Shown here: piece after piece, positions 24,178 through 54,231 of the stretch
How the letters are laid out: each line of letters opens with the position of its first letter
How positions within the stretch are numbered: the first letter of the stretch is position 1
NCBI GenBank assembly: GCA_043818015.1
Contig: JBDRGH010000003.1
Coordinates: forward strand, 1-62,575
DNA length: 62,575 bases
Source: Pseudomonadota bacterium
Lineage (GTDB): Bacteria; Desulfobacterota; UBA8473
Reading direction: 5' to 3'
The notes under the pieces: model-generated
Seen by the model: the letters and a program-made list of their open reading frames with translations, nothing else
The model's database searches: none
Told to the model about the DNA's origin: nothing
Made by a program: the position numbers and the translations under genes

Positions 24178-24489
24178 TTATAGTTTTATTTTCTTTCTTT
24201 CCTTCTTGTCTTCGCCCATTAGTTCGACCAGCTTGCTGAGCTTCTCCGAGATGTCCATCAGCAAGAAGGTCTGCAACTGCCAATGGGCATCGTGCCTCGT
24301 CTCCACGTCCTTGGCAAGGTTGTAGGCAAACCAGCTCACTCCCGCCTTGTACGGTGGCCTCAGAAGCAGATGCTTCTGCACCAGTTCCGGAAAAATCTCC
24401 GGGTGGTCTTGGAAATATCGCCTTCTGTCTGTCAAGCTGGTAAAATCATACTCCGTGATCTCTTCTTTCGTCTCTTTGTCCATCGTCAC
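24178..24489 (-). CDS. hypothetical protein
   Basis: 103-aa ORF. Its start overlaps the upstream stop by 4 nt. Confidence 0.4.
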   Translation of the reverse strand: MTMDKETKEEITEYDFTSLTDRRRYFQDHPEIFPELVQKHLLLRPPYKAGVSWFAYNLAKDVETRHDAHWQLQTFLLMDISEKLSKLVELMGEDKKERKKIKL

Positions 24490-26438
24490 TCTCCTTTCGG
24501 TTCTTCTTTTGTTTCGTTTTCGGTTACGGGCGGTTGCTGTTCTACCGTCGCTGTCTGCTGCTTCTGAAGCAGCTCCTCTGGGCTCAGAAACTCTCCCGTC
24601 GGGATGTCATAGTGCCACCCTTCCGGAATGTTCAGCCTTCCAGCCTCCTGGAGGATGACGTTCTGAATTCCCACCTGTAGGTTTTGCTTTTGGAGATCCA
24701 GATTCTGGAGTCTCTCGTGGAAAAGTTGAATGTTGAGTTTTGCTTCTTCCTTCACTTTCTTCATGATCTCTCCTCTCCTTGGAAATGGTATGTATGGTTC
24801 TAAAAAATTCAGCTTCTGTATTGCTGGCACGAATGTGGGCAGCAGCCTGTATGAGGTGGCATAGTGCCTGTAAGCCAACTCCTTGTTTCCGACGACCTCT
24901 GCTGCCGTGGCCATGTTGAGATACACCACCCATCCCGGGCTCATGCCGTCATAGTTGTGCCACATCTCCTCTGCATACTTATAGGCTGTTTGAGGAGAGA
25001 CGTTGAGATGGCCGATCAGCAGATAAGTATTGTACATGGTCTCTTTTGGAGCCCATTTCACCGTGCTGTTGCAGTCCAGTTCTTTCTGCCTCAGATTCTT
25101 TCCCTTCTGAAACCTCATGAAATAATAAGATGCTATGACGTCCTTCGCCACCATCTCCCACAAGAACAGGGCGAAGAAGGCGGCCAGCATCGGAAGAAAG
25201 ACGAAGGGCAACGTTACCGTCTGGAATGCGGGAGAAGCCAACAGGACGATGAAGCCTCCCAGGGCCCAGAAGACCATCCCGGTGGACGGTATCCTCAAGC
25301 TGAAAAAGAAAAGGCCATGGATGGCGATGGACAGGAAAGCGGTCAGCAAGAACAGCATCAAGAGGCTCCCCTCCAACACCATGGCACCAAAATAAAAGAT
25401 GCTTCCCACGAGACCCCAGCGGATTGCAGAGCCCAGAAGTCCAAGCTCCACCAGATCCTCAAGCCAATCGTTGTGGCACTCCCTCGGCTGCGGGGTGATA
25501 TACCTGTTTGGATCCAAGAACTCTGGATCCTTGTCGTTTAAAGCTGCCTGGGCAAAGTAGACCAGCTTTCTGTAAGACCTGAGCCCGTGTCCCTGCCAGA
25601 TCTTCTGCTTGAACAGATGCCATCCGGCTTTCCAATAGCAGATCCTGTAACGCAGAGTGGCCAATTTGGTGGTCTTGCTCCCGTTTATCCTCTCCTTGTT
25701 TATCCTCTCCCAATTCTTCCACAGCCAGGCAGCCACGACAACTCCAGTCAAGACGGTAAAGGGGATCAACGCCTTCAGCCAGTTTATGCTTATAAAATTT
25801 CCAAAGGAGAGGAAGAGAAAAAAGCCATAGACGGAGCCTATCAGGCCGAGCAATGCTCCTCTGCACTTGGTCTTCCAGAGCAGGAAGCAGGTCAACGAGA
25901 CTCCGAAGAGGAAAAAGAATGACACGGACAGGGACAGGTAGATCCCCAGCCAGAACATGGGAAGGATGTAGCTGGCGAAGAAATTCATGTTCCCTATGGT
26001 GCTGATCGGCCTCTTGTCCTTGGAATCCATCTTGAGCCTGGTGGGAAAGACAAAGTCGATCCCAAATGTCTGCCCAAAGGCATATAGCTGAACCAGGGAG
26101 CCTGCGCCATACATTACGATCAAAACAGAGAAGAGGGAAGAGGGATCCAGATGGACGGCAAGGATGAAGACCAAGAGCAAAGGAAGCTGGACGGCAAACT
26201 CCTTCCTGGCTCCGTCGAGGACCTCGGTCCAAAAGGTATTGACCGCCATGTATCCAATCAGCGAAAGAGAGAGCAATACCGGAAGATCAAGAAGGATCTC
26301 TCCTGTCCCCAGCAGGATCATCCCGATGCCGGAAAGCAAACAGAGGAGAGCCGTCTGCGGAAGACTGAAGATGTCGAAGAGCACCATTGGAGCGAAAATC
26401 ATAGGAGCAATTACTATCAGATAAAAAACCCATTCCAT
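24486..26438 (-). CDS. O-antigen ligase/polymerase family (Wzy_C) membrane protein with TPR-like C-terminal domain
   Basis: 650 aa with about 10 or more hydrophobic helices. Wzy_C-type signature WQGHGLRSYRK...ECHNDWLEDLVELGLLG. The soluble C-terminal region is helical-repeat-like. Confidence 0.75.
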   Translation of the reverse strand: MEWVFYLIVIAPMIFAPMVLFDIFSLPQTALLCLLSGIGMILLGTGEILLDLPVLLSLSLIGYMAVNTFWTEVLDGARKEFAVQLPLLLVFILAVHLDPSSLFSVLIVMYGAGSLVQLYAFGQTFGIDFVFPTRLKMDSKDKRPISTIGNMNFFASYILPMFWLGIYLSLSVSFFFLFGVSLTCFLLWKTKCRGALLGLIGSVYGFFLFLSFGNFISINWLKALIPFTVLTGVVVAAWLWKNWERINKERINGSKTTKLATLRYRICYWKAGWHLFKQKIWQGHGLRSYRKLVYFAQAALNDKDPEFLDPNRYITPQPRECHNDWLEDLVELGLLGSAIRWGLVGSIFYFGAMVLEGSLLMLFLLTAFLSIAIHGLFFFSLRIPSTGMVFWALGGFIVLLASPAFQTVTLPFVFLPMLAAFFALFLWEMVAKDVIASYYFMRFQKGKNLRQKELDCNSTVKWAPKETMYNTYLLIGHLNVSPQTAYKYAEEMWHNYDGMSPGWVVYLNMATAAEVVGNKELAYRHYATSYRLLPTFVPAIQKLNFLEPYIPFPRRGEIMKKVKEEAKLNIQLFHERLQNLDLQKQNLQVGIQNVILQEAGRLNIPEGWHYDIPTGEFLSPEELLQKQQTATVEQQPPVTENETKEEPKGE

Positions 26439-29388: not shown

Positions 29389-29402
29389 ATCTATTTACCT
29401 CC

Positions 29403-29951: not shown

Positions 29952-29965
29952 ATCTATTTACCTCC

Positions 29966-30508: not shown

Positions 30509-30531
30509 AATTACGATTCCTCCTTTTTTAT

Positions 30532-30811: not shown

Positions 30812-31978
30812 TTAAGTACTCTTAAAAACGAATCTGAAATCGCGGGCACCAACCCCTCCATAAAATCTTACTTTATGCCGAGATTTGATGTCAGCTTCAA
30901 ATTCCCTGTAGTGGCCAGGCTTGGCGTCCATCGTCTGCAGCGGCCATACATTTATCCACAAGAAGCACCTTTTAAAGTCACCCCAGTACCAGTATGAACT
31001 CGAATTGGCAGTGATCCACGGCGACGTGTAAGGCACGAACTTTCCGCGCCAGTATGACGGTGCCCTTTCAGCAGTCTCCGGGTGCGTCGGCGAACTGGAC
31101 AGCTCCCAGGCCTCCTCCATGAGGTCGACGGGGAACAGGGCCGGCTTGCCGATGATGCTGGCAAGCATGTAGTTCGTCTCTGGACTGTCGTCCGTCATTT
31201 GGTGCGCCAGCTTCTCCACTGCCGCAAGTCCTGCCGCCCCGAAGGGGTTGCTGGCCGCCAGGTTGTCCCCCGTGTGCGCAGTCGTGGTGCTCGCGTTGCC
31301 GTAGATGGCGACGGCGCTGTCGCCAGGCATCCACACATTGCTGTTGGCGTCGATGCAGCCCTGCACGATCAACTGTTCTTTCTTGGCCGCACAGCCTTCT
31401 CCTATTCCTTTGGCTTTAAGGAGTATTTGGCCCGTCTGATCCATCATGATCAACTCTTCCGTGACGTCGATGATCCTCCCCCACTTTGTCGTCTTGATGG
31501 TCACATACTTCTCCTCGAAGCCGGTTCCCTCATAATCCTTGCCTTCCGGAACTTCCAGAGGAAGGACATGGGCGGTCGTTCCCGTGATCGTCTCCTTCTT
31601 CAGCTTACCAGGCATCTCCGTGACCAAGTACTGCCCGATCGTGTCGACGCTGTTGTAGCCCTCGATCATCGTCTTGCTGATCAAGGCTCCGGTGATCTTC
31701 TCGAACGAGCCGGTCCCGACGGCCTCTCTCTTTGTCCTACCCCACAGACCAACGTCGGGATAGAAATTATGTCCCGTGTCCACATAGAGTGCCCCCCTCG
31801 GGGTCCTCATGAGCGGAGCATTGTCGGTAAAGGCATCCCAAAGCTCCCTGATGGATATCTCTTCGGGCTTGATCTCATCCTTTTGGATTGCCTCCATGAT
31901 GATGTCCACGACAGCTATGGCTCCCAGACTCTCGTAAAGCTCCTTTAAGTTTCCTCTCCCTTTTTCGTTAAAAGCCAT
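30812..31978 (-). CDS. major capsid protein (probable)
   Basis: 388-aa ORF with a strong AAGGAGG site. It follows the scaffold and decoration-like genes. GC-rich backbone composition. Confidence 0.6.
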   Translation of the reverse strand: MAFNEKGRGNLKELYESLGAIAVVDIIMEAIQKDEIKPEEISIRELWDAFTDNAPLMRTPRGALYVDTGHNFYPDVGLWGRTKREAVGTGSFEKITGALISKTMIEGYNSVDTIGQYLVTEMPGKLKKETITGTTAHVLPLEVPEGKDYEGTGFEEKYVTIKTTKWGRIIDVTEELIMMDQTGQILLKAKGIGEGCAAKKEQLIVQGCIDANSNVWMPGDSAVAIYGNASTTTAHTGDNLAASNPFGAAGLAAVEKLAHQMTDDSPETNYMLASIIGKPALFPVDLMEEAWELSSSPTHPETAERAPSYWRGKFVPYTSPWITANSSSYWYWGDFKRCFLWINVWPLQTMDAKPGHYREFEADIKSRHKVRFYGGVGARDFRFVFKST

Positions 31979-32499: not shown

Positions 32500-32510
32500 A
32501 CACCAGCCTT

Positions 32511-34861: not shown

Positions 34862-35254
34862 CTACTTTTTAGGAGTCAGCTTCGAGCCCACAGTTCCGAC
34901 TCCTGTCAAAGGTGTGCCGCAGACAGAGCATTTGATCTTGTTGCAAGGAACGCCTCTCTCGTGAGAAACGGCCTTCTTATACTCGGAGCACTTCGCATTC
35001 GGACAGGCACATCCATCAGTGCCACCGGCCCCTGCCGGTGCCTTGCCTTGCCCTTTCTGCTCTTTCTTGGCAGCCGGTTCAAAAGTGCCTCCCTTGCCAT
35101 CGCAATGCTTCTTGGCAGTAGCCTCCGTCCATTTGCCGACTGGATAACGGAAAGCCTGGGCCTCCGAACCCCCACCTTTCTTGAAGCCAATCACGATGTT
35201 GGGATTGACCTTTGCATTATATACGAAACGTGTGTATCCTTTCGGATCATGCAC
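34862..35254 (-). CDS. hypothetical Cys-rich protein
   Basis: 130-aa ORF with a GTG start in the track. C-terminal cysteines CACPNAKC...CNKIKCSVC. Confidence 0.35.
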   Translation of the reverse strand: MHDPKGYTRFVYNAKVNPNIVIGFKKGGGSEAQAFRYPVGKWTEATAKKHCDGKGGTFEPAAKKEQKGQGKAPAGAGGTDGCACPNAKCSEYKKAVSHERGVPCNKIKCSVCGTPLTGVGTVGSKLTPKK

Positions 35255-35344
35255 ACGACAGCTATGGAAATTTTCGTAAGGCGACTTCTTTCTCCTTCTA
35301 TTTTACGATTCCAGCAATCTGTTCTGAACTATGGAAATTGGTAA

Positions 35345-35540
35345 AATTCTTCATTTCTTCTGATTATAATAAATAACTTTAAAGTTAAAAAATAATTCAA
35401 CCGCTTTCTAACTAAATATTTCTCATTTTTCTTCACCAAATAAGAAAAATCCTTTAATTACTAATAGTTAGATAGCTATTTTTCTTTTTCCCTTACCAAG
35501 CAGATATATAATTTCCCCTAAAACTTCCTATTTCCATTAA
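35345..35540 (-). promoter_or_regulatory. AT-rich intergenic region, candidate promoter for the head operon
   Basis: Long AT-rich gap between GC-rich genes. There is a perfect minus-strand TATAAT at 35367-35362, but I found no good -35 element. Confidence 0.25.
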
Positions 35541-36614
35541 TCATCTTTTCTTTTTAGCTTTCACCTTCAGCTTCTCAACAGTCAGTAGCCTATTGTCCTT
35601 CACCATCTCGCTGAACTGGATCTTCCCGTCCTTCCACAGACTATAGCGACTCTTGCCCATGATGCCCTCTACAAAGCCCGGGGACTCAAGCTCCTGCGCC
35701 TTGAGCCAGTCATGGTAGGTGACTGTCGACGGAATCTGGCCGCCCATGTTATCTATCGTCTCCTTCGGGAACTCTTCCCTGTTTATCCCAAGTTCCTTCC
35801 AAGATCTGGTGCAGGGAGAATAACAACATCGGCAGAAGGGGTGTTTTGGCAAAATAGGAGCGTCGGCAATGTTGCTATCATACAAAAATATTCTCCCATC
35901 ATCACTCCCGCATACCAAACATGTCCTTCTATCAAGGGTAGACGTATATTGTATACCCTTCAGCACGTCCTGATTTGCATCGTACACCGCCTTGCTGACA
36001 CTGTTGCTCACCCTCTGGATCTCCGTCCTGGCTATCATCGCTGACCTGTCGACGAGGATCCGTCCCAATTTTCCGCCCATCTGTCTGCCCAGTCCGATCA
36101 GCTCCCTGCGAGCAGTGGCCATGTCCTCGCCGGTGATCACTGCCTGGGCCAACCGACCTCTGATGGCCCTTACTGCCTCTGCGTTGTGCCACAGCATCCG
36201 ATCTCCAAACAGCTCTCCCAGCATCGGCTGCTCCACCAGCGCAAAGATCTGTTCAGCAAGCAGCCTATTCAGGACGATCCCCACTCTGCCCAGAACGTCG
36301 GCCAACGGTCCCTCTGCCAGACCGGCCTGTACCGCAGCAAACTCGTTCAACTGGCCTATCAAGTTTGCAACGGAGCTGGAAGTGGCAGCATCCAACACCA
36401 CATTGATCTCGTCCACCATGTTCTGAAGTCTCTGCATACGCCATTCGCGGGTGAAGCCAGACCATAGTTCCGCCTGTGCCATCCTGGCATGGAGAATCGC
36501 CTTGGCCTCCATGAATGGCTGAACGACCTGCTGGATGGCATTGTTCTCGAACCTACGAATGTAGTGAGCCTGCCTCAAGATCTGGTTTCTCAGTTGGGTG
36601 TTTATGTCCGTCAT
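35541..36614 (-). CDS. head morphogenesis protein, SPP1 gp7 / Mu F family
   Basis: ARTEIQRVSNS...TSTLDRRTCLVCGSDDGRIF motif. Positioned after the portal. Confidence 0.8.
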   Translation of the reverse strand: MTDINTQLRNQILRQAHYIRRFENNAIQQVVQPFMEAKAILHARMAQAELWSGFTREWRMQRLQNMVDEINVVLDAATSSSVANLIGQLNEFAAVQAGLAEGPLADVLGRVGIVLNRLLAEQIFALVEQPMLGELFGDRMLWHNAEAVRAIRGRLAQAVITGEDMATARRELIGLGRQMGGKLGRILVDRSAMIARTEIQRVSNSVSKAVYDANQDVLKGIQYTSTLDRRTCLVCGSDDGRIFLYDSNIADAPILPKHPFCRCCYSPCTRSWKELGINREEFPKETIDNMGGQIPSTVTYHDWLKAQELESPGFVEGIMGKSRYSLWKDGKIQFSEMVKDNRLLTVEKLKVKAKKKR

Positions 36615-37546
36615 CTATCTTCCTTCTGCAAAATCCATTGGTAAGACTTTTTTATTCCCTCTTCAATCGACACTTTCGGCTCCCACTTGAGAACCTTTCT
36701 TGCCAGGGAGATGTCCAAGACATTCACAGGAACGTCTATTCTCCTTTCTTCTTTATACCTTATCTCGATCTCTTTCTCTGCAATCGGTGCCATCACTTTG
36801 ATCAGATCGTTCAGAGAGGACCCGTTTCCACTTCCGACATTGAATATATGGTGCTTTGTCTGTTTTGAGTCCATCGCTCTTAGGCATGCATTGATAAGAT
36901 CCTTAACATAGATGTAATCCCGAACGACACTGCCATCTCCCCAAATGACCAGAGGATCTCCTCTCACGATCTTCTTCAGAAAAACGGCAACGGCTCCCTG
37001 AGACCTGTCCGGGTCCTGCCTCTCTCCGTATGGATTCGAGAAACGAAGACTGACGTAGTCCAAGCCGTAAAGCTGATGATACAGATGAAGGTGTTTTTCG
37101 ATCATCAGTTTTGAGATGCCATACGCACAGATCGGATCGGTCGGATGGTCTTCGGTAATCGGGATCTCATCAGGAACTCCATAAACCGTTCCGCCAGACG
37201 ATGCAAAGATGATCCTCTTTACGCTGGTGGACTTTGCCATCTCAAGCAGATTCATGGTAGGGACCACGTTGGTCTCAACGTCATAAATCGGGTCTTGGGT
37301 CGAAGACTGTGGGTCGGTCGTGCTGATGAAATGGAAAACGTAGTCCATCCCTCTGATGGCCTTTCGGAGATGGCTCTTGTTGGTGAAGTCGCCTCCGAAC
37401 AGACCTATCCTGTCCAGGTTGTGGCTGACGTTTTTCGTGTCCCTGTCAACTTTGTCGAACACCGTGACTCGATGTCCCTCATCCAGCAATCCATCCACGA
37501 GATGCGAGCCGAGAAAGCCGCATCCGCCCAGGACCAAGCACTTCAT
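36611..37546 (-). CDS. NAD-dependent sugar epimerase (GalE-like SDR)
   Basis: MKCLVLGGCGFLGSHLVDGL, ASSGGTVYG and YGISK (YxxxK). I prefer the ATG at 37546, which has GAGGA upstream. The stop overlaps the gp7-like ATG (ATGA at 36611-36614, checked). Confidence 0.85.
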   Translation of the reverse strand: MKCLVLGGCGFLGSHLVDGLLDEGHRVTVFDKVDRDTKNVSHNLDRIGLFGGDFTNKSHLRKAIRGMDYVFHFISTTDPQSSTQDPIYDVETNVVPTMNLLEMAKSTSVKRIIFASSGGTVYGVPDEIPITEDHPTDPICAYGISKLMIEKHLHLYHQLYGLDYVSLRFSNPYGERQDPDRSQGAVAVFLKKIVRGDPLVIWGDGSVVRDYIYVKDLINACLRAMDSKQTKHHIFNVGSGNGSSLNDLIKVMAPIAEKEIEIRYKEERRIDVPVNVLDISLARKVLKWEPKVSIEEGIKKSYQWILQKEDR

Positions 37547-37559
37547 CTCGTCCTCACTT

Positions 37560-38996
37560 TCAGCCTTCATTTGCCATAGGATTGTATGCATCATCCCCCT
37601 GCTCATCTTGCATGTGGACCTTCTCCGTCTCCGGATCGAGGCCCCGCTTCAGCTGCCAGGTCTTCCTGCTCACAACCTTGTTCCTGTACTCGATCTCCAT
37701 GGCCTCGTCTTCCTGCTTGATGTCCTGATGGATCAAGGGCTGAAACTCTACGTCGACTTCCGTGGAAGTGTTTTTGGGGAGTGGGCCGTGATCTATGGCA
37801 TTCTGTATCACGGCTCCGAAGATGTCGCTGTAGATGGTCTCCGCAAAATCCTGCCAATCCTCGATCTCCCTCACGAAGGGATTCTGGGCTATCATCGTCG
37901 AACTGTAATTTGCATTCGAGTAATCCGCGGTAAGGATCATCTCCGGAAAGCCGACTCCGGCTGCCACGGAAAGGAGCATGTTCCTTCCGTCCTCTGCCAC
38001 GTCGCTCGCATTGATGTTGGGAGAGAGTAGCTCATATTTGACGTTTGGTCCGGTGGTGATGACCGTCCCCCTCTCCAGCATCTTCGTCTTCTTGCGGTCA
38101 GACTCCTTCGTCTCAGACTCCAGGTTGTCTCGAAGCGCCTGTATCTGAGCGGTGGGAGCATCAACGTGCTTCACCAGAGCTATCGCCGTCCTGACCTTGT
38201 TGAGGACGATGCGGTCTTCCATCCAGTCCTTGTACTTCTTCAGCATCGGAGCGCAGACTTCAAGAAGGCTGATGCCCCTCTTCATGTCCGCATCCGCAAA
38301 GAGCTTATAGTGCAGGATCTCCTCCGCCGGAATCCTGGATTGAAGCTCCCCGTGATCGTCGCAAATGTAATAATGCTTGTAGTCTTCCACGTCATCCGGA
38401 TTGTGCCCTATCCCAAACGAGACCTTCTCTCCCTTGTGCAGATCCTTGTCGTCGACCTTCAGGCCTGTGGGCGTCCTGACCTTGCCCGGACGGATGAATC
38501 GAATCTTCACCAAGCCATCTTCATTTGTACCACCCTTGAACAGCCTCATAATGACCTCACCGTCCCGAAAGAAGCGGACGAAGATCTCCTTCTCCTTGAG
38601 GTTCCATTTCCTCTTCTTCGCCATGTTCTCTTTGGAGGAGCTCTCTCTCTTGAAGTTCACTATGATCTCCTTGACCTTTTCGTTCTTGTCCTTGGGCATG
38701 ATGTTGGCACCCTTGCCCACAACGAACTTGACCATCGTGCGCACGATGGCACGGGCATGGAGATTGGTGCGCCACAGCCTGTAGGCCTGCTCAAGCATCT
38801 CCCTGTGCTCCTCTTCCGTGGGCCGATATCCGGCCTCAGAGCCGTGCAGTATCCAATCAGAGTCCTCTTCCTTTTGCACTATGTTGCTTGCCTCCGCAAG
38901 CTGCTGCATGTTTTGATTGATGTAGCCAAAGAGGCTCTTCCGTTGCTCCAGCTCCAGCATGCCTATCTCTCGCTTCAATCTGTATCTCTTAAACAT
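37560..38996 (-). CDS. portal protein
   Basis: 478 aa, downstream of terL with only the radical SAM gene between them. TAGGAGG lies before the ATG. Size and composition fit phage portals. Confidence 0.7.
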   Translation of the reverse strand: MFKRYRLKREIGMLELEQRKSLFGYINQNMQQLAEASNIVQKEEDSDWILHGSEAGYRPTEEEHREMLEQAYRLWRTNLHARAIVRTMVKFVVGKGANIMPKDKNEKVKEIIVNFKRESSSKENMAKKRKWNLKEKEIFVRFFRDGEVIMRLFKGGTNEDGLVKIRFIRPGKVRTPTGLKVDDKDLHKGEKVSFGIGHNPDDVEDYKHYYICDDHGELQSRIPAEEILHYKLFADADMKRGISLLEVCAPMLKKYKDWMEDRIVLNKVRTAIALVKHVDAPTAQIQALRDNLESETKESDRKKTKMLERGTVITTGPNVKYELLSPNINASDVAEDGRNMLLSVAAGVGFPEMILTADYSNANYSSTMIAQNPFVREIEDWQDFAETIYSDIFGAVIQNAIDHGPLPKNTSTEVDVEFQPLIHQDIKQEDEAMEIEYRNKVVSRKTWQLKRGLDPETEKVHMQDEQGDDAYNPMANEG

Positions 38997-39031
38997 CCTG
39001 AGTCCTCCTATACGAAATCTAAAAAGCTTTT

Positions 39032-40438
39032 TTAAAAAGCTTTCTGCACCAAATTTTTATCTGTAATCCTTTTCCACTCAACACTCCTGATCTCTTCCAA
39101 CCATTCCGGAGTAAAATCCTTAGTTCTTATCACTCCTTTGGAAAATCTATATTTAAGGTAGGGAGCATTTTTTACAAGAAGACCTTTTCTTTGGCACTCT
39201 TTTAACAGGCGAGTACCTGGATATGGAGTGGCTATGAAAAAACCCAAATTATCCAAAGCTAGGGTCTCTGCAAAATCAATGGTCTGCCAGATCATCTCCT
39301 TGGTCTCTCCAGGCAACCCTATGATAAAAAAGCCATTGACTGCTATTCCTATCTTTCTTGCAAAGTCCACCAGGGAAGGAACTCTGTCAAGTTTTAATGG
39401 CTTGCGAATGATCTTGTCAAGGACATATTGACTACCTGACTCTATCGCCAGTGAAATATTGTAGCACCCACTATTTTTCATTTTTTTAAGTAGTTCTTCA
39501 TCAAGGTGATCCACAGAAATACCATTTGGAGTGGACCAAACCAAATCCAGCTTTCTATCAATTATGCCATCAAAAATACCCAAAGCCCTTTGCCTATCCG
39601 CTAGCAGACTGTCGTCTTCAAAGTAAATTTCTCTAATTCCCTGTCCGTTCACCAACTCTGTCAACTCCTGCAAAATACTGCTTACAGACCTTGTTCGAAA
39701 TTTTTGTCCCTGTATAAGACTAACAGAACAAAAAATGCAATTCCAAGGGCACCCTCTAGAAGTCACTACAGAAGTATAAGGTTTCCTTATTAGAGTTCCA
39801 TGTGCCACTCCAATATCCTGATACTTTTCCATGGGCAGTAAATCTCTGGCAGAAAACGGTAACAGATCCAAATCTTTAATCCAGCACCTATCCTTCAAAT
39901 TTATATGAGTCTTCTTTCTTGCCTTAAACCCAAGGCCTCCTATACCATTCAGATCTCCGCCTGTCTGTAATGCCTCCAACAGTCTAAGGAAAACCTCTTC
40001 TCCCTCTCCTAAAACTACAAAATCTATGCTTCTATCCGCCAATATCTTTTCAGGAAGTGCGGTAGGATGAGCGCCTCCTACCACTGTATGTACCTCTGGA
40101 TCAACTTCTTTTGCCAATCTACAAACATTGTACATGCTCTCCTCTAAAAAAGAAAACAGGCAGGACACTCCAACCACATCCGGCTGAATATCCCTTATGC
40201 GCTCTTTTATGGAAGCTTCGTTCAAGCCATAGCGAAGGCATCCCTCCGGCAAAAGCTCCTCAGTGTTAAACCCCTCTGCAACAGTATCCAATATCGTCAC
40301 CGAATAACCATTCTCCCTTAAATATGCAGCAATATAGGCAAGTCCTAAAGGAGGGCAAGATTTTTTAAGCTCCCTACCTTTGAATATGGTCATTGGTGGA
40401 AAAATAAGCAGTGCTTTTAATTTATTCATCTTCCTCAT
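39032..40438 (-). CDS. B12-binding domain radical SAM protein
   Basis: LLIFPP...[23 protein letters not shown] (B12-binding-type N-domain) and [13 protein letters not shown] (CX3CX2C). I prefer the start at codon 68 of the track ORF, whose ATG overlaps the terL TGA (ATGA at 40435-40438, checked). Confidence 0.85.
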
Positions 40439-42216
40439 CCATGTTCCACCTTCTCGAACCAGTATCCCTCTTGCTCCACCTCGTCGAGCACGGGGACAAG
40501 GTACTGCAGAAGGAACGGCGGAGCGCTCTTCACCACGTATCGGGCCGTGTCCATGCCGTGGTCGTTGATCTTCAGCGGTTGTCTCCTGACGACCTTTCCC
40601 TCCAGAGAGCGGGGATACTTGTAGTTGTTGAACTCCCAATCGGTGCCCTTCAGCTCCGGATTGTCCCAGTCCTCGTAACCCTTGACGATGTAATAATGGG
40701 CCTCGCCCCCCTCCCTCCTCAGATGCAGACGCATCATGTCAATGCCGTCCTCGACGGCGTTGTCGGCAGGGAGCGTCGCGATGTTGTAGAGCTGCTCCAG
40801 GTCGATCCTAGCCTGCTTCGCGGACGGGTCGGCAAAGATCAGCTCCCCCTCCACGTATCCCGGACTCCTGCGGATCTTCTCCGCATGGTCCGCCATGGTG
40901 TCCCCGGCAGACCTGTACTCGTAGAAAAGATAGAACGTGATCAGAGCCATGTTCAGGATGCCCCCCTGCAGGACCTCGGGGTCGTATGCTCCGTGGCTGT
41001 CGTTTACGGCGCGCTGCAGAGCCGCGACGTCCGCACGATACTTGCTGTAGACGAAGGGGTGTCCCGGAGAGGAGCCGAAGTCGATGCCGCTCACGATGAG
41101 CAGGCCGTCGCCGGACGGTCCGATCCGTTCGATCCTGTGAAAGTCCTCGTCGTACTCCTTCCCGTACACCTGGACCTCCCTGCTCGGCCTCTTGTTGAGC
41201 CACTGCGTCTCGAACGTGTCCTCGCTCATCGTCTCGTACTTCCTGACCACGTCCGAGACCTTGTAGAAGCCATCGGCATTGTGGGCAAGGCCCTTGCAGT
41301 ATTTCCACAGCGGGCAGTCCCCGTGCTTCGGGTCCCCCTTGCACTTCCTATCACACCTCTCGATCACCTCCCAGATGCACCAGGCATAGACGGAGGTATT
41401 GTTCTCCCTGGACTCGTCCAAGAGCCTCTGGAAGGTCCCGACGTCGTACTTCCTTGTTGAAAGGAACACCTGCTGGGCGGTGATGTCCTCCTTGCTCATC
41501 GTCATGGAAAAGCTCTCCTGCAGGACCTCCCAGTCCATCAGCTCCACCTCATCGATGCGCGCCTTGTTGGGATGGGGGCTGTTCAGGCCCTTGACGCTCC
41601 CGGTGATGACGCTCAGCATGGACTCGTTCCCGTACGTGCTGGCGGACCGCGTCGGGTCCTTCCGCAGGAGGGCCTTCAGCTCCCTGGTCCTGTGGAGCTT
41701 GGTGAAGTAGGCGTACATCCTGTCCGCCTGGTCCCTGGTCGCCCCTGCGGAAGCGATCTCGCAGTCCTCCTTGAACAGCATGTCGAGATGGTTCAGTATG
41801 GCGGTGTTGAGCGTCTTGCCCCCCGTCCTGTTGGCGAAGACGATGCAGTCCCCGACCCTCTCGAAGAACATGTCGGCAACGTAGTCGAACGGCGACCTGC
41901 AGCCGTGTCCGGGCCCGTGGTCCCCGCAGAGCCTCTTCCTCGGGATCTTCCATCCGAGATACTCCCATATGTACCACCACAGGACTTCCTCGTTATGGAT
42001 GCCGACGTCGACGAGCCTCACGAACAGGCCGTAGTCGATCTTCTCCGCCTCAATCTTGTGGTTTTTCTTGTAGGCATCCCACAAAGTTATGAGGTTGTGG
42101 AATTCGTCCTCATCGATCTGCTGCTGGTTTTCGATGCAATGGGTGAAAGCCTTCGAGAAGCAATCCTCGGGCCGCAGGCTTTCGTCGAATGATGCCGGCA
42201 GGCTGCCCACGTTCAT
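40435..42216 (-). CDS. terL: terminase large subunit
   Basis: 593 aa. Walker A-like [11 protein letters not shown] in the N-terminal ATPase region and a C-terminal nuclease-like region. ATG at 42216 with GGAGG upstream. Confidence 0.85.
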
Positions 42217-42239
42217 CCGTTCGGGTTGACCTCCGTTTT

Positions 42240-42285
42240 TATATAATTCATTCTGTGAATTATATAACTTTTTGTGCTTTGTTAA
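42240..42285 (-). promoter_or_regulatory. candidate promoter overlapped by a perfect palindrome, upstream of terL
   Basis: TATATAATTCA (42240-42250) and TGAATTATATA (42256-42266) are exact inverted repeats with a 5-nt spacer. The minus strand reads TTAACA (42285-42280)-N15-TATAAT (42264-42259), ending about 40 nt before the terL ATG. Confidence 0.35.
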
Positions 42286-43119
42286 AAAACTGTCGGTTCC
42301 TGATGCTTGCCACTGCTGTAAATATTTTGCTATAATTTTCTGGAATTGCCGTATAGGAGCTGTAAATCAGAAAACAGGAATTTTGGTTCCCCCCTACCCC
42401 CATCTCTCGATCTCAAAAAATTCAAATGTAGCCGGCCCTTTGCATGCCCCCACAGGCTGATGCTTTTGGAATCTGCCAAGCAGCCCCGCAAAGCTTCCAG
42501 CAGCTCCCCCTTCTTCCTCTTGCCGAACTCTGCGCCTGCCGAAGTCCCCCGCCAGCCGTCCTTGGATCCCAGCTCCTCAAGATCAATGCCTTTTAATGCC
42601 TTTCCGACAACCCCTCCCATCTTATCCATCCTCGCACCTCCTTCCTGCTGCATTTCAACAGGCACCAGGTCTTCAGCCAACGCCACCGTCTAAGATGCCA
42701 TGGGGCTGCGCCCATCTTCCAACCGTCGGTGAACCTTATCTCTTCTTCTCCGATGAGCGTCCTTGCCTCCTTTCCCTTGATCCTTTCCACCTCCCGTCGC
42801 ACCTTCTCGCGTCGTATGCAGGCAAGCAGAACAGGCCCCAAGCCATGCGGTCGGTCTCCGACAAGGGCACGGCCGCTCTTTCCGATGCAAGTCTGTGACT
42901 GGATGATGCAACCAACCAAAGATGGGCGTAAGAGACCATTCAGCGTAAACCTTTGGTGGCAGACAGCAGTATGGCAATGGCAGCCCCTCTCTTTGGTTGA
43001 ATATCCTTAGTGTTGTCAATGTGTTAGGCAGGTGTCATGGCAGCCTGGCAGTCGCAACTCCTCATGGTCCCACCATCCCATGGACACAGAGTCCGCTGCC
43101 TCATTGACGCCGTTTTTAG

Positions 43120-44631: not shown

Positions 44632-45330
44632 CTACAAGAATCCCTTGACGTATCCGATCTCGAACGCCTCTGCCGCACTGAAGCCTATGCAGCTCCCCCT
44701 ATAGCCGGCCAGATCCAGCATCCCTTTGACTGACCTGGGATGCGGAGGCCCTTTGGCTTCCCCTTCATAACATTCGAAGGCTTGCAACTTCATCGGCAGG
44801 GTGTCCTCGATGTCCACGTACATCGTCGGATGGAAGAGGCGCTCGGAGCAGAACCTGTCCGTGGAGGACGGCATCTCGAAGAAGAACAGGCCCTTGCAGT
44901 CGGGAAATGCCTCCGGCCTGAAGACGGTCTGCACAGCTTGGGAAGTCATCTGGTGGTCTACGTTGAGGTCCCTTTGGAAGTGGGTGAAGACGTAGTCAGG
45001 AGGCCCCAAAGCTCCCACCCATCGCTCGATGGCTTTGACGATGGAGAGCATGGGTCCGGAATCGAAGCTGTTGTCGGGAAAGTCCTTAAAAGACAGGTTC
45101 TTGATCCCGAGTATCCTTGCCGCTTTCCTGCTCTGACGTTTCAGATCGGCCACCACGTCGTAACTGGCGCCATCCCGACTCATCTCTCCCTCTCCAAGGA
45201 TGAGGCAAGAGATTTCGTATTCCTCGGAATACTTCGCCATCGTCCCTCCGCAGCCGATCTCGTCGTCCGGATGGGCGACTATCACGAACATCTTGAACAT
45301 CGAATCTAACTCCTTCATACCTTTTGACAA
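44632..45330 (-). CDS. PIG-L/LmbE family deacetylase
   Basis: VIVAHPDDEIGCGG and NVDHQ motifs. Confidence 0.8.
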   Translation of the reverse strand: MSKGMKELDSMFKMFVIVAHPDDEIGCGGTMAKYSEEYEISCLILGEGEMSRDGASYDVVADLKRQSRKAARILGIKNLSFKDFPDNSFDSGPMLSIVKAIERWVGALGPPDYVFTHFQRDLNVDHQMTSQAVQTVFRPEAFPDCKGLFFFEMPSSTDRFCSERLFHPTMYVDIEDTLPMKLQAFECYEGEAKGPPHPRSVKGMLDLAGYRGSCIGFSAAEAFEIGYVKGFL

Positions 45331-45537: not shown

Positions 45538-46308
45538 TTAAGATTGATTCTTTCCGCTCTTCATCTCTTTTTTACCCACATTGTTTTCCGTCAGAATCTC
45601 CAGGCTTCTCGGCCCGTGGTTCAAGGCCAGATCCACCACGCTCATGTGCGCATGAAATTCTCCAGAAGTCTTCAACTGATGCTGTCCATATGCTGGATGC
45701 TGGTAATCCTGATACGCGATCTTTATTCCCGCCTTCTCAAACTTCTTTTCCTCCAGATAGCCTTTCCCTAACGTTCCACTGAAATAGATGTCCGCCTTCT
45801 CTCTCTGACAGATCTCCAAAACCAGATCGCTCTTCGTCCCGATGAGAGGCGGATCATAAGCGGAGCTCTTCTTGATCTCAGAATCTATCCCAAGCATCTT
45901 GCCCAGATAAACGGAAGAGAACTCCAGATTGGCGTCCAAGTCCTTCCAATCGAACACACGCATCAATCTGAACATCTCCCTCATCGCATGCCCGTGTTCG
46001 GGCTTGTCCCAGTAAGGAGACTTGGAATAGCACAGGCTAATCGAGCGGAGATGCTTATCCAGCCAGTTCACCCTTTCATCCACCAGAACCTTGCTGATCT
46101 GCTGCTTGGAATCGGCTTTGGTCAAGGCAGGAATCGTCAGCCACATCTCCCTTCCGTCAGGCTGGAGGATCCTGTTGCGATTAATGAAGCTGTTCTTTTC
46201 AAACTGGACCGTATTCAGTATGACAAAAATATCTGCAACAGACATCTTATGAAAATATCCAAGCCAAGGAATATAGGCTGGCTGGTGTATGGATATTATC
46301 TTAGTCAT
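45538..46308 (-). CDS. WbqC-like family protein
   Basis: IHQPAYIPWLGYFHKM...NTVQFEKNSFINRNRI N-terminal signature. Confidence 0.75.
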   Translation of the reverse strand: MTKIISIHQPAYIPWLGYFHKMSVADIFVILNTVQFEKNSFINRNRILQPDGREMWLTIPALTKADSKQQISKVLVDERVNWLDKHLRSISLCYSKSPYWDKPEHGHAMREMFRLMRVFDWKDLDANLEFSSVYLGKMLGIDSEIKKSSAYDPPLIGTKSDLVLEICQREKADIYFSGTLGKGYLEEKKFEKAGIKIAYQDYQHPAYGQHQLKTSGEFHAHMSVVDLALNHGPRSLEILTENNVGKKEMKSGKNQS

Positions 46309-46996: not shown

Positions 46997-47599
46997 TTAT
47001 CTTCTGTTTTCTTTTCCATTTCTATATAGATGCATCATAAAAAAGTTTTTAGAAGTATCGTGTCTCAGACAAATGTATGGCGTCAACAGAAAGACAAAAG
47101 ACAGTATCTTACCAGCATCGAAATGATATTCACCCTTGCCGTCAGGAATAAGGGACTCTGCACTCAGGCAGTCGAATATCAGAAGTTCTCGCGTAACCAG
47201 CCAGGCTTCTTCTATCAGTTTCAAAGCCTCTCGGAAAGGATAAAGGTATAAGACGCCATTCATGATGATAATGTCGTGCATTGCAATAGGCATAGGCCAA
47301 GTACCTTGCAGGACATTTATTTCCATCTTCTCTTTTTCGACTTTTTCAACCACTTTTTCGGAGACATCCACCCCTAGATAATCGATGCTGGCAAAATAAT
47401 CATCCAGATAATCCTTCAGATCGCAGAAGCCACAACCTATGTCAAGCACGGATTTATAGTTAAAGTCTGTGGCCTCGGAGATCATCTTGAACTTCAACTC
47501 CTGCGATTCCTTGGAGCCATAGTCCAAGGCTTGGATCGAATGGCCATGCTTATCTATTAAGTAGTCGAAAAAACACCCAACATTTTTCATATTCCGCAT
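46997..47599 (-). CDS. class I SAM-dependent methyltransferase
   Basis: Motif I VLDIGCGFCD, then YLGVDVS, and IIMNGVLYLY. Confidence 0.7.
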   Translation of the reverse strand: MRNMKNVGCFFDYLIDKHGHSIQALDYGSKESQELKFKMISEATDFNYKSVLDIGCGFCDLKDYLDDYFASIDYLGVDVSEKVVEKVEKEKMEINVLQGTWPMPIAMHDIIIMNGVLYLYPFREALKLIEEAWLVTRELLIFDCLSAESLIPDGKGEYHFDAGKILSFVFLLTPYICLRHDTSKNFFMMHLYRNGKENRR

Positions 47600-51891: not shown

Positions 51892-54231
51892 TCAATGGTT
51901 GATCTTATTCCAAGCATTCAAATCCTCCACCATCTCTTTCTTTAAACCTATAAGTTCCTCATCTGAAAAATCAGTGAAGTTAACAAGCAAGCTTTCGCCC
52001 TGCTCGTTGTCAGACAGCCTTAAACAGAGGTCCTCCTCTTCATCCAGCCTCCTTTCAGAAGAGCCGAAATAACCTTGCATCCTCATCCACTTCCACAAAG
52101 GAGTGCCTGGGTATGGCGTCAGAAAGAAGATGGCATGGGGAGGCAGATTGTGCTGCTTGCAGAAGGCAACTGTCTCTTGAAGCGTCTCTCGGGTCTCTCC
52201 TGGAGTTCCTATGATAAACGTTGCCTCACAATCTCCAAATATGTCCTGGGACATCTCAACTGCTTCGTGACACTTTTCCACAGTTGTCCTCTTATTCAAT
52301 CTGTCAAGTATCTTTTGACTTCCTGATTCAACTCCATACCCGACAAGAACGCAACCAGCATCTTTACAAAGTCCTAATATCTTTCTGCCCACAGTATCAA
52401 CCCTAGCACCACATTCCCAGCTAACTATCTTGTTCATTCCGGAGAACACCATCAACTCACAAAACTCTTTCACATTCTTTTTATTGGTTATGAAAATGTC
52501 GTCCCCCATCAGAATGTGCTCAACTCTATAATTTTCATACAGATAGACAATCTCATTAAACAGCGACTGAGCATCCCTATATCTATACTTAGTTCCCATA
52601 TAGTCGTGATAGCAGAAAAAACAATTATGGACAAGAATATCATTAGCAAAAAACCAATCATACCCAGGAATTGACATGCAATAAACATCCTCTTTCTCCG
52701 AAAGTTTTTCAATTGATTTAACCTTATGATTACTTTGCTTAATCTGCCCTTGCTTTCTTTTTATCCAGCCAGCTCTATAGTTTGCTTTATGCTCCTCAGT
52801 ACGTTTCTTTCCTAAATTACTTTTTCCTACTTTTTCAGCCCATTCTTTAGTTATTATTCTGCCTTTAAGTTTATTTGAGATCTTCTTTTTAACCTCTACA
52901 GAACGTTCTATTCCATATAAAGGACTCTCCTCTCCTCTTTTACCATAGTTAGGATTGCTCTCTCCTAATTTACTAAGTCTATAATTTTCTTTTTGTTCAG
53001 GAGTTCTTTTTTTACCCAAATTCCTCTCTTTAGCTCTTTCAGCCCTTTCCTGTGGAGATAGCTTAAAGACAGGATTTTTCTCTCCTTTCCACTTCTCACT
53101 AAACCCAGAATGCTGTAGTATATGCTCTTTATGGTTTGAACACAGCTTTAAATTAGTAGGGAGGTAGTTCTTCTTATTTTCATCAATATGATGAATTTCT
53201 TCTCCCTTCCTAAGCTCTCTCCCAAGAAGCCTTTCCATCATAGTTCTGGCTCCTCGTAATTGGCCTGGGTATTTGCAAGCCACCACACTCTGGCCTGGCT
53301 GAAGATTTTGAGCTTCAACTTCCCATTCTTTCCTTGGCTGAAATTGGTTTTTATATTGCAAAACCATAAATCTATGGTCTGAAGTGCAATCAATATGACT
53401 CCCATCAGTAAAATGAACTCTTACTAGCTCTGCATCTTTTCTTGTTTTAAAAATAGCTTTAGGCTTAATATAAACTATTCTCTTTGTTTTTGGATTACGA
53501 GTAAGGATCAAAGGAGTCTGCCCTACCAAATCTTCTATTTTCTTCTTCCCATCTGGAGTATCAAGAAGAGTATCTCCTCTCAAACAATTGAAAGGACAGC
53601 CCCTGCTACTGAGTATGTTCATGGACTTTGGCACTTTTTCTGCCTTTCCATCAGTCCACTTTGCCTTGTTGATTGTGCTTCCCACCGGATTGTTGGCATA
53701 GATCTCTGTCGGAAAGAGATCATATGCCGGCAATGGCAGTTTGTTGATATCTTTAATTGGGTATCTTTTGTCTGTTGAAATAATTTCTTCGCCCCTTCTA
53801 TAGACAATCCCCGGAGTCATGAACCTTGTTTTCTTTTGTTCCAATTCGTAAAATAAATCTAAAGCAGTCACCTCTCCCTCTCCAATGACACAAACGTCAG
53901 CTCCTGCCTTTCGGAGCATGATCTCAGGAATACTGCTCCCAAGGACGCCGCCAACTATGATAGGAATGTCCGTATTATATCCTTTAATCTCCTTAATAAG
54001 CCATTTCACATAAGCATAGTTTGTAATCAGTCCTGTGACGCCCACAGCATCATATTCCAGAGAATAGAGCTTAGAAATTACTTGATCCTCTGAATATCTA
54101 TGAGCATTGATATCCAATATTTCGACATCATGATCCTTCTCCAGTACCTGGGCTATGTATCCCAGGCCCTGCGGAAAGCAGTTGGGAGGAGCCCATGTCC
54201 TAACCGGAGGATTAATGAGTAGTATTTTCAT
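51892..54231 (-). CDS. B12-binding domain radical SAM protein interrupted by an intein
   Basis: N-terminal LLINPP...GLGYIAQVLEKDHDVEILD and IIVGG. The cluster motif is split as GCPFN|C...VHN|CFFC. The extein is 458 aa and the intein is 321 aa. Confidence 0.85.
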   Translation of the reverse strand: MKILLINPPVRTWAPPNCFPQGLGYIAQVLEKDHDVEILDINAHRYSEDQVISKLYSLEYDAVGVTGLITNYAYVKWLIKEIKGYNTDIPIIVGGVLGSSIPEIMLRKAGADVCVIGEGEVTALDLFYELEQKKTRFMTPGIVYRRGEEIISTDKRYPIKDINKLPLPAYDLFPTEIYANNPVGSTINKAKWTDGKAEKVPKSMNILSSRGCPFNCLRGDTLLDTPDGKKKIEDLVGQTPLILTRNPKTKRIVYIKPKAIFKTRKDAELVRVHFTDGSHIDCTSDHRFMVLQYKNQFQPRKEWEVEAQNLQPGQSVVACKYPGQLRGARTMMERLLGRELRKGEEIHHIDENKKNYLPTNLKLCSNHKEHILQHSGFSEKWKGEKNPVFKLSPQERAERAKERNLGKKRTPEQKENYRLSKLGESNPNYGKRGEESPLYGIERSVEVKKKISNKLKGRIITKEWAEKVGKSNLGKKRTEEHKANYRAGWIKRKQGQIKQSNHKVKSIEKLSEKEDVYCMSIPGYDWFFANDILVHNCFFCYHDYMGTKYRYRDAQSLFNEIVYLYENYRVEHILMGDDIFITNKKNVKEFCELMVFSGMNKIVSWECGARVDTVGRKILGLCKDAGCVLVGYGVESGSQKILDRLNKRTTVEKCHEAVEMSQDIFGDCEATFIIGTPGETRETLQETVAFCKQHNLPPHAIFFLTPYPGTPLWKWMRMQGYFGSSERRLDEEEDLCLRLSDNEQGESLLVNFTDFSDEELIGLKKEMVEDLNAWNKINH
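52624..53586 (-). mobile_element. intein with HNH homing-endonuclease and NUMOD3-like repeats
   Basis: Residues 216-536. Cys1 (TGT 53586-53584), block B TSDH, terminal VHN (AAT 52626-52624) and a +1 Cys. HNH motif EEIHHIDENKKNYLPTNLKLCSNHKEHILQH. Repeated GKKRTxEQK-type motifs. Confidence 0.8.

Follow-up and report, generated by a model that had tools for sequence, protein, structure and literature searches.

Predicted radical SAM and epimerase genes in variable slots of the packaging and head gene block in an uncultured siphovirus-like phage

Lambdoid and HK97-like phages carry extra genes between their conserved late genes, and these morons, in the concept of Hendrix and Juhala, are autonomous elements, each with its own promoter and terminator. 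On a larger scale, giant viruses of eukaryotes (chlorovirus PBCV-1, and mimivirus with its fibril glycans) glycosylate their own capsids or fibrils in the cytoplasm. In the virion glycosylation of Mycobacterium phages studied by Freeman et al. 2023, the machinery reportedly consists of a few soluble glycosyltransferases, and we know of no report of a lipid-carrier phosphotransferase, a Wzy_C protein, a nonulosonate pathway, or a radical S-adenosylmethionine (SAM) enzyme in those phages. Here we analyze an incomplete contig of an uncultured siphovirus-like tailed phage in which two enzyme genes sit among the packaging and head genes. One encodes a B12-binding-domain radical SAM protein (rSAM1) and lies between the genes for the large terminase subunit (terL) and the portal; the other encodes a GalE-like epimerase and lies between portal and the gene for a Mu-F/SPP1 gp7-like head morphogenesis protein (MuF). 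The window, that is, the whole stretch of DNA that was analyzed, is the entire 62,575-nucleotide (nt) NCBI contig JBDRGH010000003.1, whose Pseudomonadota label derives from the binning of a metagenome-assembled genome (MAG).

We consider it rather likely that rSAM1 and the epimerase are intact cargo in variable slots and dispersed members of a phage glycan toolkit that remodels the surface of the host. Within this reading, we are quite confident of the part that makes the two genes slot cargo and members of a toolkit; that the host envelope is the target seems to us evenly poised, as judged from the kinds of enzyme encoded. How does this compare with the systems described so far? As for morons, lineage-specific genes were found flanked by core genes that adjoin each other in many relatives (terL and portal in eight, portal and MuF in four), and the composition of rSAM1 differs sharply from that of its flanks. 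Unlike morons, which have a promoter and terminator of their own, the two genes form no autonomous transcription unit that we could find, are joined to their neighbors by overlaps or by spacers of 13 and 35 nt, and occupy slots with a different occupant in each sub-lineage.

A second point of comparison is the modification of host surface glycans by temperate phages. The prophage enzymes epaA/epaB retailor pseudaminic acid in the capsule of Acinetobacter baumannii (PMC12053666). Together with the serotype-converting phages, they share with our contig sugar enzymes and a Wzy-family membrane protein that work on a lipid-linked or surface glycan. However, those systems consist of one to three genes on temperate phages and act on a glycan made by the host, whereas here at least 18 genes are spread across the structural region and no integrase is seen on the contig; these genes cover most of a nonulosonate pathway and include an initiating transferase as well as four radical SAM genes. 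The Mycobacterium phages, in which glycans occur on the C termini of capsid and tail-tube proteins (as summarized in PMC12619734), also encode their own glycosyltransferases, as our phage is predicted to do. With the machineries of giant viruses, our contig shares nucleotide-sugar synthesis coupled to transferases and a multigene scale, and it differs from them in belonging to a tailed phage with bacterial-type lipid-linked components. Enzyme genes among head genes, and phage-encoded sugar enzymes, are already known in kind. Other traits are out of the ordinary: the slot between terL and portal holds a cobalamin-type radical SAM gene; the toolkit is unusually large and complete, and of its four radical SAM genes one has an intein within its iron-sulfur motif; part of this toolkit is conserved beside terL in a divergent lineage of uncultured phages; and cargo is cleanly exchanged slot by slot. 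Our literature search found no paper on a phage combining a nonulosonate pathway with B12-binding radical SAM genes, or on enzymes encoded between terL and portal.

Every gene of the region, and nearly every gene of the contig, is on the minus strand, and the order of transcription is terL, rSAM1, portal, epimerase, MuF. The terL gene (40435..42216), encoding 593 amino acids (aa), gives weak PHROG terminase matches (E 5e-6 and 1e-4), and its identity is given by its position, homologues of 44-69% identity being present upstream of portal in every relative. The portal protein (37560..38996, 478 aa) is of the lambda family (PF05136, Phage_portal_2, E 1e-30; PHROG 21, E 6e-37), while MuF (35541..36614, 357 aa) is recognized by PF04233 (E 3e-11) and PHROG 241 (E 1e-54). 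Between these core genes lie rSAM1 (39032..40438, 468 aa; PF02310 and PF04055) and the epimerase gene (36611..37546, 311 aa; PF01370 and PHROG 540). An earlier reading of the bare DNA (hereafter the sequence-only reading) had placed a radical SAM gene and an epimerase gene in just these positions, which the domain and PHROG matches bear out. It had also described two ATGA overlaps, and both are exact: the terL stop overlaps the rSAM1 start at 40435..40438, and the epimerase stop overlaps the MuF start at 36611..36614, as read directly from the minus strand. On their other sides, the two genes are set slightly apart from their neighbors. The rSAM1 stop is followed by a 35-nt spacer and then by portal, which has its own strong Shine-Dalgarno sequence (TAGGAGGA), and 13 nt separate the portal stop from the epimerase start. 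Since overlaps are found at 15 of the 71 same-strand junctions on the contig (4 nt long at 11 and 1 nt long at four), they represent its normal packing and are not special to the two enzyme genes.

To see what such slots hold elsewhere, searches were done with portal and terL, which yielded 23 related loci, and occupants were counted over distinct phages. The sequence-only reading took terL, portal, and MuF to be normally contiguous, which is half true. While terL and portal are adjacent in eight relatives, with a gap of at most 128 nt, they are separated in nine; portal and MuF are adjacent in four and separated in 10. The occupied terL/portal slots contain a gene of a 190-236-aa family in six phages, a class I methyltransferase gene in L004/L026, a DUF5662 gene in L027, and two small open reading frames (ORFs) in L012. 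The portal/MuF slot has an even more varied content: HNH/NUMOD3 homing endonucleases, a metallophosphatase, a trypsin-like protease, β-helix proteins, an Asn-synthase-like protein, and small ORFs. Neither a radical SAM gene nor an epimerase gene was found in either slot among the relatives. This holds for the closest of them, L004/L026 (67-69% identity in terL, 70-76% in portal) and L027 (61%), and in L004 portal directly adjoins MuF. Moreover, the gene between terL and portal differs in each of the three closest lineages, and nucleotide homology with the closest relatives ends a few bases before the terL stop to restart at about the portal start codon. The suggestion that the enzymes were acquired is thus supported, in the sense that they are lineage-specific additions, by their absence from the slots of relatives and by the breaks in homology at the slot edges. 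Because relatives fill the slots with endonucleases, a phosphatase, and a protease, both are, as judged from gene content, general sites for exchangeable cargo rather than sites reserved for capsid-modifying enzymes, and position in them does not predict function. Another 78 terL loci, more distant at 27-34% identity, had no match to the portal hidden Markov model and were therefore left out of the slot counts.

Several other observations were made on this block in relatives. The members of the 190-236-aa family (L006, L010, L013, L019, L021, and L023) share 36-49% mutual identity, are without a Pfam match, and probably represent an older resident of the terL/portal slot that was lost or replaced elsewhere. 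In-frame inserts of about 1.1 kb, the size of inteins, are present in terL of L006 (1,013 aa; 4169-7210) and in portal of L023 (1,046 aa; 2948-6088). In L008, L011, L014, and L020, MuF has C-terminal extensions (1,161-1,697 aa), which recall MuF-associated polymorphic toxins. Taken with the inteins in terL and portal, these extended MuF proteins point to a plastic block.

Base composition had been used to argue that both inserts are AT-richer than their neighbors. The two hand counts on which this was based (26/60 G+C at 39061-39120 and 38/60 at 40801-40860) are correct, and the argument applies to rSAM1, with a GC content of 0.41 and a GC content at third codon positions (GC3) of 0.38. It hardly applies to the epimerase gene (0.49/0.59), whose values are not far from those of portal (0.53/0.73) and MuF (0.53/0.67). 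Overall, the contig has 46% GC, and the GC3 of rSAM1 is like that of its bulk; the compositional outliers are the packaging and head genes terL (GC3 0.86), portal (0.73), and capsid (0.71), not rSAM1. Across relatives, the GC3 of terL ranges from 0.17 to 0.86, with the value of 0.86 also found in the closest, L004/L026. GC3 is strongly uneven along the contig, at 0.76-0.83 in two small genes upstream of terL, 0.74 in a PIG-L gene (44632-45330), and 0.23-0.50 in many tail and glycan genes.

Signals that could drive expression of these genes were sought on either side of them. In the 113-nt gap upstream of terL, a candidate σ-70-like promoter (TTAACA, 15-nt spacer, TATAAT) can be seen by eye at 42259..42285 on the minus strand, as a match to consensus only; our promoter scanner, which demanded a spacer of 16-18 nt, hence made no call there. 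At the other end, MuF is followed on the minus strand by a 286-nt AT-rich gap (35255..35540, GC about 0.31) with one weak promoter-like match at 35328-35300, and this gap is probably where the terL-to-MuF transcription unit ends. The promoter and terminator scan of the contig was not enriched when compared with shuffled sequences (11 vs 11.3; 13 vs 14.4) and made no call within the enzyme-gene junctions, and a hairpin at the rSAM1 stop does not exceed its shuffles in stability (z = -0.26). Since there is no space for, and no detected, private promoter or terminator, co-transcription with terL, portal, and MuF is the natural reading, and the spacing makes a five-gene unit plausible.

The two enzyme genes are not alone. 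As assigned by family and profile matches, the contig carries at least 18 glycan genes including rSAM1 and the epimerase gene, to which about one-third of its length is given, and at least 16 of these were not recognized in the sequence-only reading. All are on the minus strand. Upstream of terL, we find genes for a PIG-L family sugar de-N-acetylase (44632..45330; PF02585, E 2e-20), which with its GC3 of 0.74 is in the same compositional class as terL, a WbqC-family protein (45538..46308; PF08889, E 4e-59), a class I SAM methyltransferase (46997..47599; PF13649), a PseH-like GNAT acetyltransferase (47550-48017; 41 bits against a PseH cut-off of 93), and a NeuB/PseI-like nonulosonate synthase (48286-49209; PseI 138 vs 340 and NeuB 163 vs 400 bits). 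These are followed by two soluble glycosyltransferases, GT2 (49850-50626) and GT4 (50623-51804), a second B12-binding radical SAM protein interrupted by an intein (51892..54231; PF02310, PF14890, PF13392, and PF04055), a second PIG-L deacetylase (54972-55748), a PseF-like cytidylyltransferase (55826-56521; 103 vs 206 bits), a 365-aa protein assigned to no family (56897-57994), a PseB-like UDP-GlcNAc 4,6-dehydratase (57943-58929; 384 vs 408 bits), a third radical SAM protein (60203-61702; PF04055), and a fourth (rSAM4, 61813-62511; PF04055) cut by the end of the contig. In the second radical SAM gene, an HNH intein of about 310 aa sits inside the CX3CX2C motif (GCPFN, then C…HN, then CFFC), and its splicing would restore CPFNCFFC. 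Between the PseB-like and third radical SAM genes lies an AT-rich stretch of about 1.1 kb (59105-60202, GC about 0.37) without a minus-strand ORF of at least 60 aa, which may represent a regulatory region or the remains of a gene.

The remaining members of the toolkit are downstream of terL. A Wzy_C membrane protein of the O-antigen ligase/polymerase family (24486..26438, 650 aa; PF04932, 53.7 vs 31.7 bits) is encoded between the head and tail genes; it displays at least 10 hydrophobic/transmembrane (TM) segments, a head-gene-like GC3 of 0.67, and no NCBIfam match. After the lysis genes come a LegB/dehydratase-like short-chain dehydrogenase/reductase (SDR) (2072-3028; PF16363/PF01370) and a polyprenyl-phosphate sugar-1-phosphate transferase of the WecA/MraY family with about seven TM segments (1268-2068; PF00953, 119.8 vs 27 bits, E 1.5e-34). 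Of a lipid-linked (Wzy-type) route, an initiating transferase and a Wzy_C-domain protein are thus both predicted. The sugar pathway is best described, from its profile scores, as pseudaminic-acid-like and not as that of pseudaminic acid, the six-enzyme set (PseB, C, H, G, I, and F) not being found at the equivalog level.

The toolkit is also, judging by homologues in relatives, phage-borne and old in the lineage. In relatives with 45-48% portal identity (L005, L007, and L014/L015), the 8 kb upstream of terL contain genes for GT2 (44-46% identity), NeuB (38%), an rSAM4-like protein (43-47%), and a phosphotransferase (38%). The rSAM4 homologues are those upstream of terL in L005 and L014, and the phosphotransferase homologue is that of L005. 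A Wzy_C homologue of 30% identity is encoded in L023 just downstream of the major capsid gene. We considered that the 44.6-62.5 kb portion might be bacterial DNA flanking a prophage and rejected this, as divergent relatives have homologous glycan genes upstream of terL and the contig has more glycan genes within and beyond its structural genes.

As for rSAM1, its sequence has the architecture of a B12-binding-domain radical SAM protein (PF02310 plus PF04055). Residues 24-153 correspond to an N-terminal Rossmann domain of the cobalamin-binding type (PF02310, 94 bits against a cut-off of 32.1) and precede a radical SAM core (PF04055, 78 bits against 29.5), in which the CX3CX2C motif occupies residues 230-237 and C230, C234, and C237 are invariant in 32 homologues. 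The protein is without TM segments and is predicted to be soluble, and the NCBI annotation of the contig has the same 468-aa product (P0001) with the same overlapping start. It scores below every NCBIfam equivalog cut-off, the best being the Sden_1168 P-methyltransferase (289.5 vs 575 bits), with HpnJ at 192/578, BchE at 147/481, and AprD4 at 118/500 bits; ApyD was also among the named equivalogs tested. The label "Mg-protoporphyrin cyclase" that JGI gives to homologues of rSAM1 is not transferable to it. AprD4 is the radical SAM diol-dehydratase of apramycin biosynthesis, which acts on a sugar ring and, to our knowledge, does not use cobalamin despite having the domain. It is the closest solved structure by sequence (PDB 6fd2, E 1e-25, residues 189-420), although the similarity is distant.

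Thousands of rSAM1 homologues with 45-52% identity occur in uncultured bacteria and archaea, and we found no characterized member of the family. Among deposited phages, the only full-length B12-binding radical SAM homologue is that of Streptomyces phage SF3 (29% identity), which adjoins genes for a thymidylate kinase and a NUDIX hydrolase. IMG/VR scans with rSAM1 or the epimerase as single proteins gave no match, and viral rSAM1 homologues in that database were recovered only by a 32-sequence profile. Many of the viral contigs so identified pair B12-binding radical SAM genes with SDR epimerases, and on one of 66 kb, genes for PseB, a cytidylyltransferase, NeuB, and an rSAM1 homologue of 43% identity lie within 8 kb of sequence.

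The closest homologues also suggest partners for rSAM1. The best, P0002 (52% identity), is a WbqC-radical SAM fusion, and a class I methyltransferase gene precedes it (L025). On our contig, the stand-alone WbqC protein shares 37% identity with the WbqC part of this fusion (E 3e-47), and the methyltransferase encoded at 46997-47599 is similar (E 1e-14) to the one before the fusion gene and weakly similar (E 5e-5) to the methyltransferase in the terL/portal slot of L026. Both genes are 5-7 kb upstream of rSAM1, on the other side of terL, and from these similarities we infer that their products are the partners of rSAM1.

Cellular gene neighborhoods are consistent with a role in surface polysaccharides. 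Four cellular contigs were compared (L106, L144, the unlabelled L145, and L146), and in all four a polysaccharide cluster surrounds the rSAM1 homologue. L106 (Ga0180007_10000151, 127 kb), with an Omnitrophica-labelled homologue, encodes three B12-binding radical SAM proteins, GT2, several GT4, Wzy_C, and methyltransferases. The contig with a Woesearchaeota-labelled homologue has three radical SAM genes, methyltransferases, GT2, Wzx-type flippases, and an epimerase, and that with a Nitrospinae-labelled homologue has the order radical SAM-GT2-methyltransferase-DegT-WbqC, with an epimerase slightly further on. In L145, many GT4 and GT2 genes, methyltransferases, and PMT_2 are near the homologue. 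These clusters share with the phage the radical SAM family (at 47-50% identity), GT2, GT4, class I methyltransferases, WbqC, an SDR epimerase, and Wzy_C. However, their genes are contiguous and include Wzx-type flippases, whereas those of the phage are scattered, with two among the head genes. L106 is from the same sample as L002, one of the contigs that share the block of interest (see below), which may hint at the host phylum and proves nothing; the phage glycan genes have nothing above 47% identity in the Omnitrophica cluster, so no host link can be drawn.

The epimerase is predicted to be a soluble nucleotide-sugar 4-epimerase of the extended SDR type (PF01370, 195.6 bits, E 1e-57; PHROG 540, E 2e-75). 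Its ORF extends to 37606 at its longest, and the most plausible start is the ATG at 37546, which is preceded by a GAGGA Shine-Dalgarno sequence and gives the usual MKxLVxGGxGFxG N terminus. The GxxGxxG (GGCGFLG) motif near the N terminus and the YxxxK (YGISK) motif are both present. Its best match among solved structures is 4zrm, a 312-aa UDP-glucose 4-epimerase (E 2e-64). GalE is the top-scoring family, although its cut-off is not reached (TIGR01179, 202.2 vs 262.3 bits), so that the label GalE-like suits the protein fairly well and its substrate is putative. Homologues are common in deposited phages (303 records).

Taken together, these features would fit the following scheme. rSAM1 and the epimerase would be read from the message of terL, portal, and MuF, with ribosomes crossing the two ATGA overlaps. 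The epimerase would supply the 4-epimer of a UDP-hexose or UDP-HexNAc as a donor. With WbqC and the methyltransferase, rSAM1 would carry out a radical tailoring of a sugar or glycan intermediate. C-methylation, the commonest chemistry of the B12-binding radical SAM architecture, is the most likely candidate, and other chemistry is possible, given that AprD4, the closest relative of solved structure, acts on sugars as a diol-dehydratase. The glycan would be built on a polyprenyl-phosphate carrier, moved outside the cytoplasm, and placed on host lipopolysaccharide (LPS), capsule, or surface protein, by which the surface of the infected cell would be changed. The position in the head module would then mark where this lineage tolerates insertions and not a role in procapsid assembly.

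A number of points weigh against this scheme. Remodeling of the host surface from the late operon of a lytic phage needs a rationale, for which a block to superinfection, or progeny not sticking to debris, are speculative candidates; there is little ground for invoking lysogenic conversion, as no integrase is seen on the incomplete contig. No flippase of the Wzx or ABC type was found among the contig proteins scanned, which did not include every ORF, and one might be encoded beyond the end at which the contig is cut or be supplied by the host. Neither a PseC-type aminotransferase nor a recognizable PseG was found on the contig, and the pathway is incomplete as seen, on a contig that is cut at one end and in a lineage whose relatives IMGVR_UViG_3300033064_006579 and 3300028840_002691 reach 105-112 kb. 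None of the pathway enzymes attains the score of its NCBIfam equivalog cut-off, which makes the sugar's identity a best guess. The Wzy_C family spans ligases, polymerases, and protein O-oligosaccharyltransferases, and the acceptor could be that of any of these. Finally, co-transcription is deduced from gene spacing, the consensus promoter may not be of the host's type, and the terL/rSAM1 junction is spanned by the window contig only.

This last point raises the question of whether the arrangement is real. The block from rSAM1 through portal and epimerase to MuF recurs at 99.8-99.9% identity in three other contigs (L001-L003) and hence is not a one-off assembly artifact; the 0-3 synonymous and nonsynonymous differences per gene are too few for any conclusion. 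The terL/rSAM1 junction itself might be a chimera of two phage genotypes made during assembly. GC3 falls from 0.86 to 0.38 right there, two contigs of separate samples, L002 (JGI 3300014656) and L003 (ENA ERZ27247128), share window position 40418 as their first base, 17 nt into rSAM1, and a scan for an exact 26-nt pattern from the terL 3' end had no match in JGI metagenome contigs or IMG/VR that would give a second contig. An exact look-up of the terL protein likewise had no match, probably owing to a different start call. However, position 40418 is downstream of the ATGA, and the part upstream of it already holds the end of terL with its stop, followed in frame by seven codons of rSAM1. Besides, rSAM1 is tied to portal in four contigs, terL is upstream of that slot in every relative, and a random join would hardly yield a clean start/stop overlap together with a full-length N terminus that aligns with homologues. 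We therefore regard a chimera as scarcely credible, and the shared start suggests a strain-level recombination boundary or heterogeneity, or an assembly fork, at the junction. A different concern is that rSAM1 and the epimerase gene came as opportunistic passengers, or are auxiliary metabolic genes of a generic sort, brought into permissive slots perhaps by homing-endonuclease activity, with little effect or at most a top-up of the host's nucleotide-sugar pools and no phage pathway dedicated to them. Homing endonucleases and inteins are indeed frequent at and around the slots in relatives, nucleotide-sugar epimerases are common in phages, the composition of rSAM1 is foreign to its neighbors, and neither gene is in the corresponding slot of any relative. 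This explanation strikes us as quite improbable nonetheless, with both reading frames intact and their catalytic motifs kept, the block nearly identical in contigs from several samples, and a third of the contig made up of glycan genes. The presence on the same contig of WbqC and a methyltransferase, the fusion and neighborhood partners of rSAM1, is also unlikely by chance.

If the enzymes do work with the toolkit, what would they modify? The sequence-only reading held that their placement suits modification of a virion component during assembly, and one can imagine that the toolkit makes a glycan for capsid, decoration, or portal proteins. The tight packing of the genes with terL, portal, and MuF speaks for it, as do the soluble GT2 and GT4, which could work in the cytoplasm and possibly act on virion proteins, and the Ser/Thr/Gly-rich character of the decoration proteins and of three paralogues encoded after the capsid gene. 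The capsid and tail-tube glycans of Mycobacterium phages offer a precedent (PMC12619734, in its summary of them). We nevertheless find the proposal unsupported and judge virion modification unlikely, since the slots of relatives are filled by unrelated endonucleases, a phosphatase, a protease, and a methyltransferase, the majority of the glycan genes are outside the head module, and the radical SAM family sits, in cells, in surface-polysaccharide clusters with Wzx and Wzy genes. In addition, the polyprenyl-phosphate transferase and Wzy_C are membrane proteins of a lipid-linked route. In known systems, such enzymes bring glycan to the outer face of the membrane and thus out of the cytoplasm, where capsid assembly takes place, which makes the virion a less likely main target. 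The case for capsid modification is weak, and the bolder version, in which the phage makes a nonulosonic-acid glycan tailored by radical SAM enzymes and wears it on capsid decoration or tail proteins, hence the expression from the head operon, is distinctly unlikely; were it true, it would be the first known case of a phage that synthesizes and carries its own complex sialic-acid-like glycan. It is very improbable that the enzymes modify phage DNA or nucleotides, for instance by sugar hypermodification of bases, with expression alongside the packaging genes ensuring modification before encapsidation. The homologue in phage SF3 lies beside nucleotide-related genes (thymidylate kinase and NUDIX hydrolase), and phage glycosyltransferases that glycosylate DNA are cited in PMC12619734. 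However, the 62.6 kb contain no hydroxymethylase, thymidylate-synthase homologue, 5mC dioxygenase, kinases, or replication genes, the nonulosonate synthase, cytidylyltransferase, lipid-carrier phosphotransferase, and Wzy_C are typical of surface glycans, and the close family of rSAM1 is found in polysaccharide clusters. Remodeling of the host surface by a dispersed toolkit is thus the reading we retain.

The rest of the contig fits a siphovirus-like tailed phage, as indicated by genes for an HK97-type major capsid protein (30812..31978, minus strand; PF25209), a tape measure (12551-14989), and a J-like tail fiber (6545-10684), the last two identified by PHROG matches. No deposited relative was found at the DNA level when positions 35001-43000 were compared by blastn with 50,697 phage records, and neither an integrase nor a tRNA gene was found within the 62.6 kb of this incomplete contig. 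Scanning 185,579 GTDB genomes with a portal profile produced only two matches, both in Planctomycetota MAGs and with 24-26% identity, which give no evidence of a host or a prophage. Two paralogous cement/decoration-like genes precede the capsid gene (31996-33038, minus strand), relatives having two or three decoration copies, and directly after it come three tandem paralogues of 181, 182, and 191 aa (28843-30541, minus strand), which are Gly/Thr/Ser-rich and share the pattern MARKKTR…HWIAVGV. No clear candidate for a small terminase was identified. Some 0.9 kb upstream of terL there is a repeat of a 32-nt unit in 2.3 copies (92% match, 43120-43193), which lies just downstream of minus-strand genes for a 70-aa protein with a weak helix-turn-helix and a small basic protein (ORFs 43408-43620 and 43172-43426), and could be a packaging-initiation or regulatory site. 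Another repeat, of a 60-nt unit in 2.4 copies (93% match, 22051-22196), lies inside the ORF 21120-22877 (minus strand) and encodes repeated SDGSDLKDASSAILQVLESI segments; the 585-aa product consists mostly of similar degenerate repeats and has no assigned function.

If our reading is correct, the glycan toolkit of this phage would rank with the largest known so far from phages of the siphovirus-like kind, running from nucleotide-sugar synthesis to membrane transfer, in a lineage that comes from environmental metagenomes. The links of rSAM1 with WbqC and a methyltransferase would provide a testable entry to an abundant radical SAM family that is labelled by NCBI and JGI generically, as radical SAM or B12-binding domain proteins, or as "Mg-protoporphyrin cyclase". 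The locus would also show how such a toolkit can grow, with fixed slots among terL, portal, and MuF being refilled in each sub-lineage by cargo that uses the expression signals of the operon.

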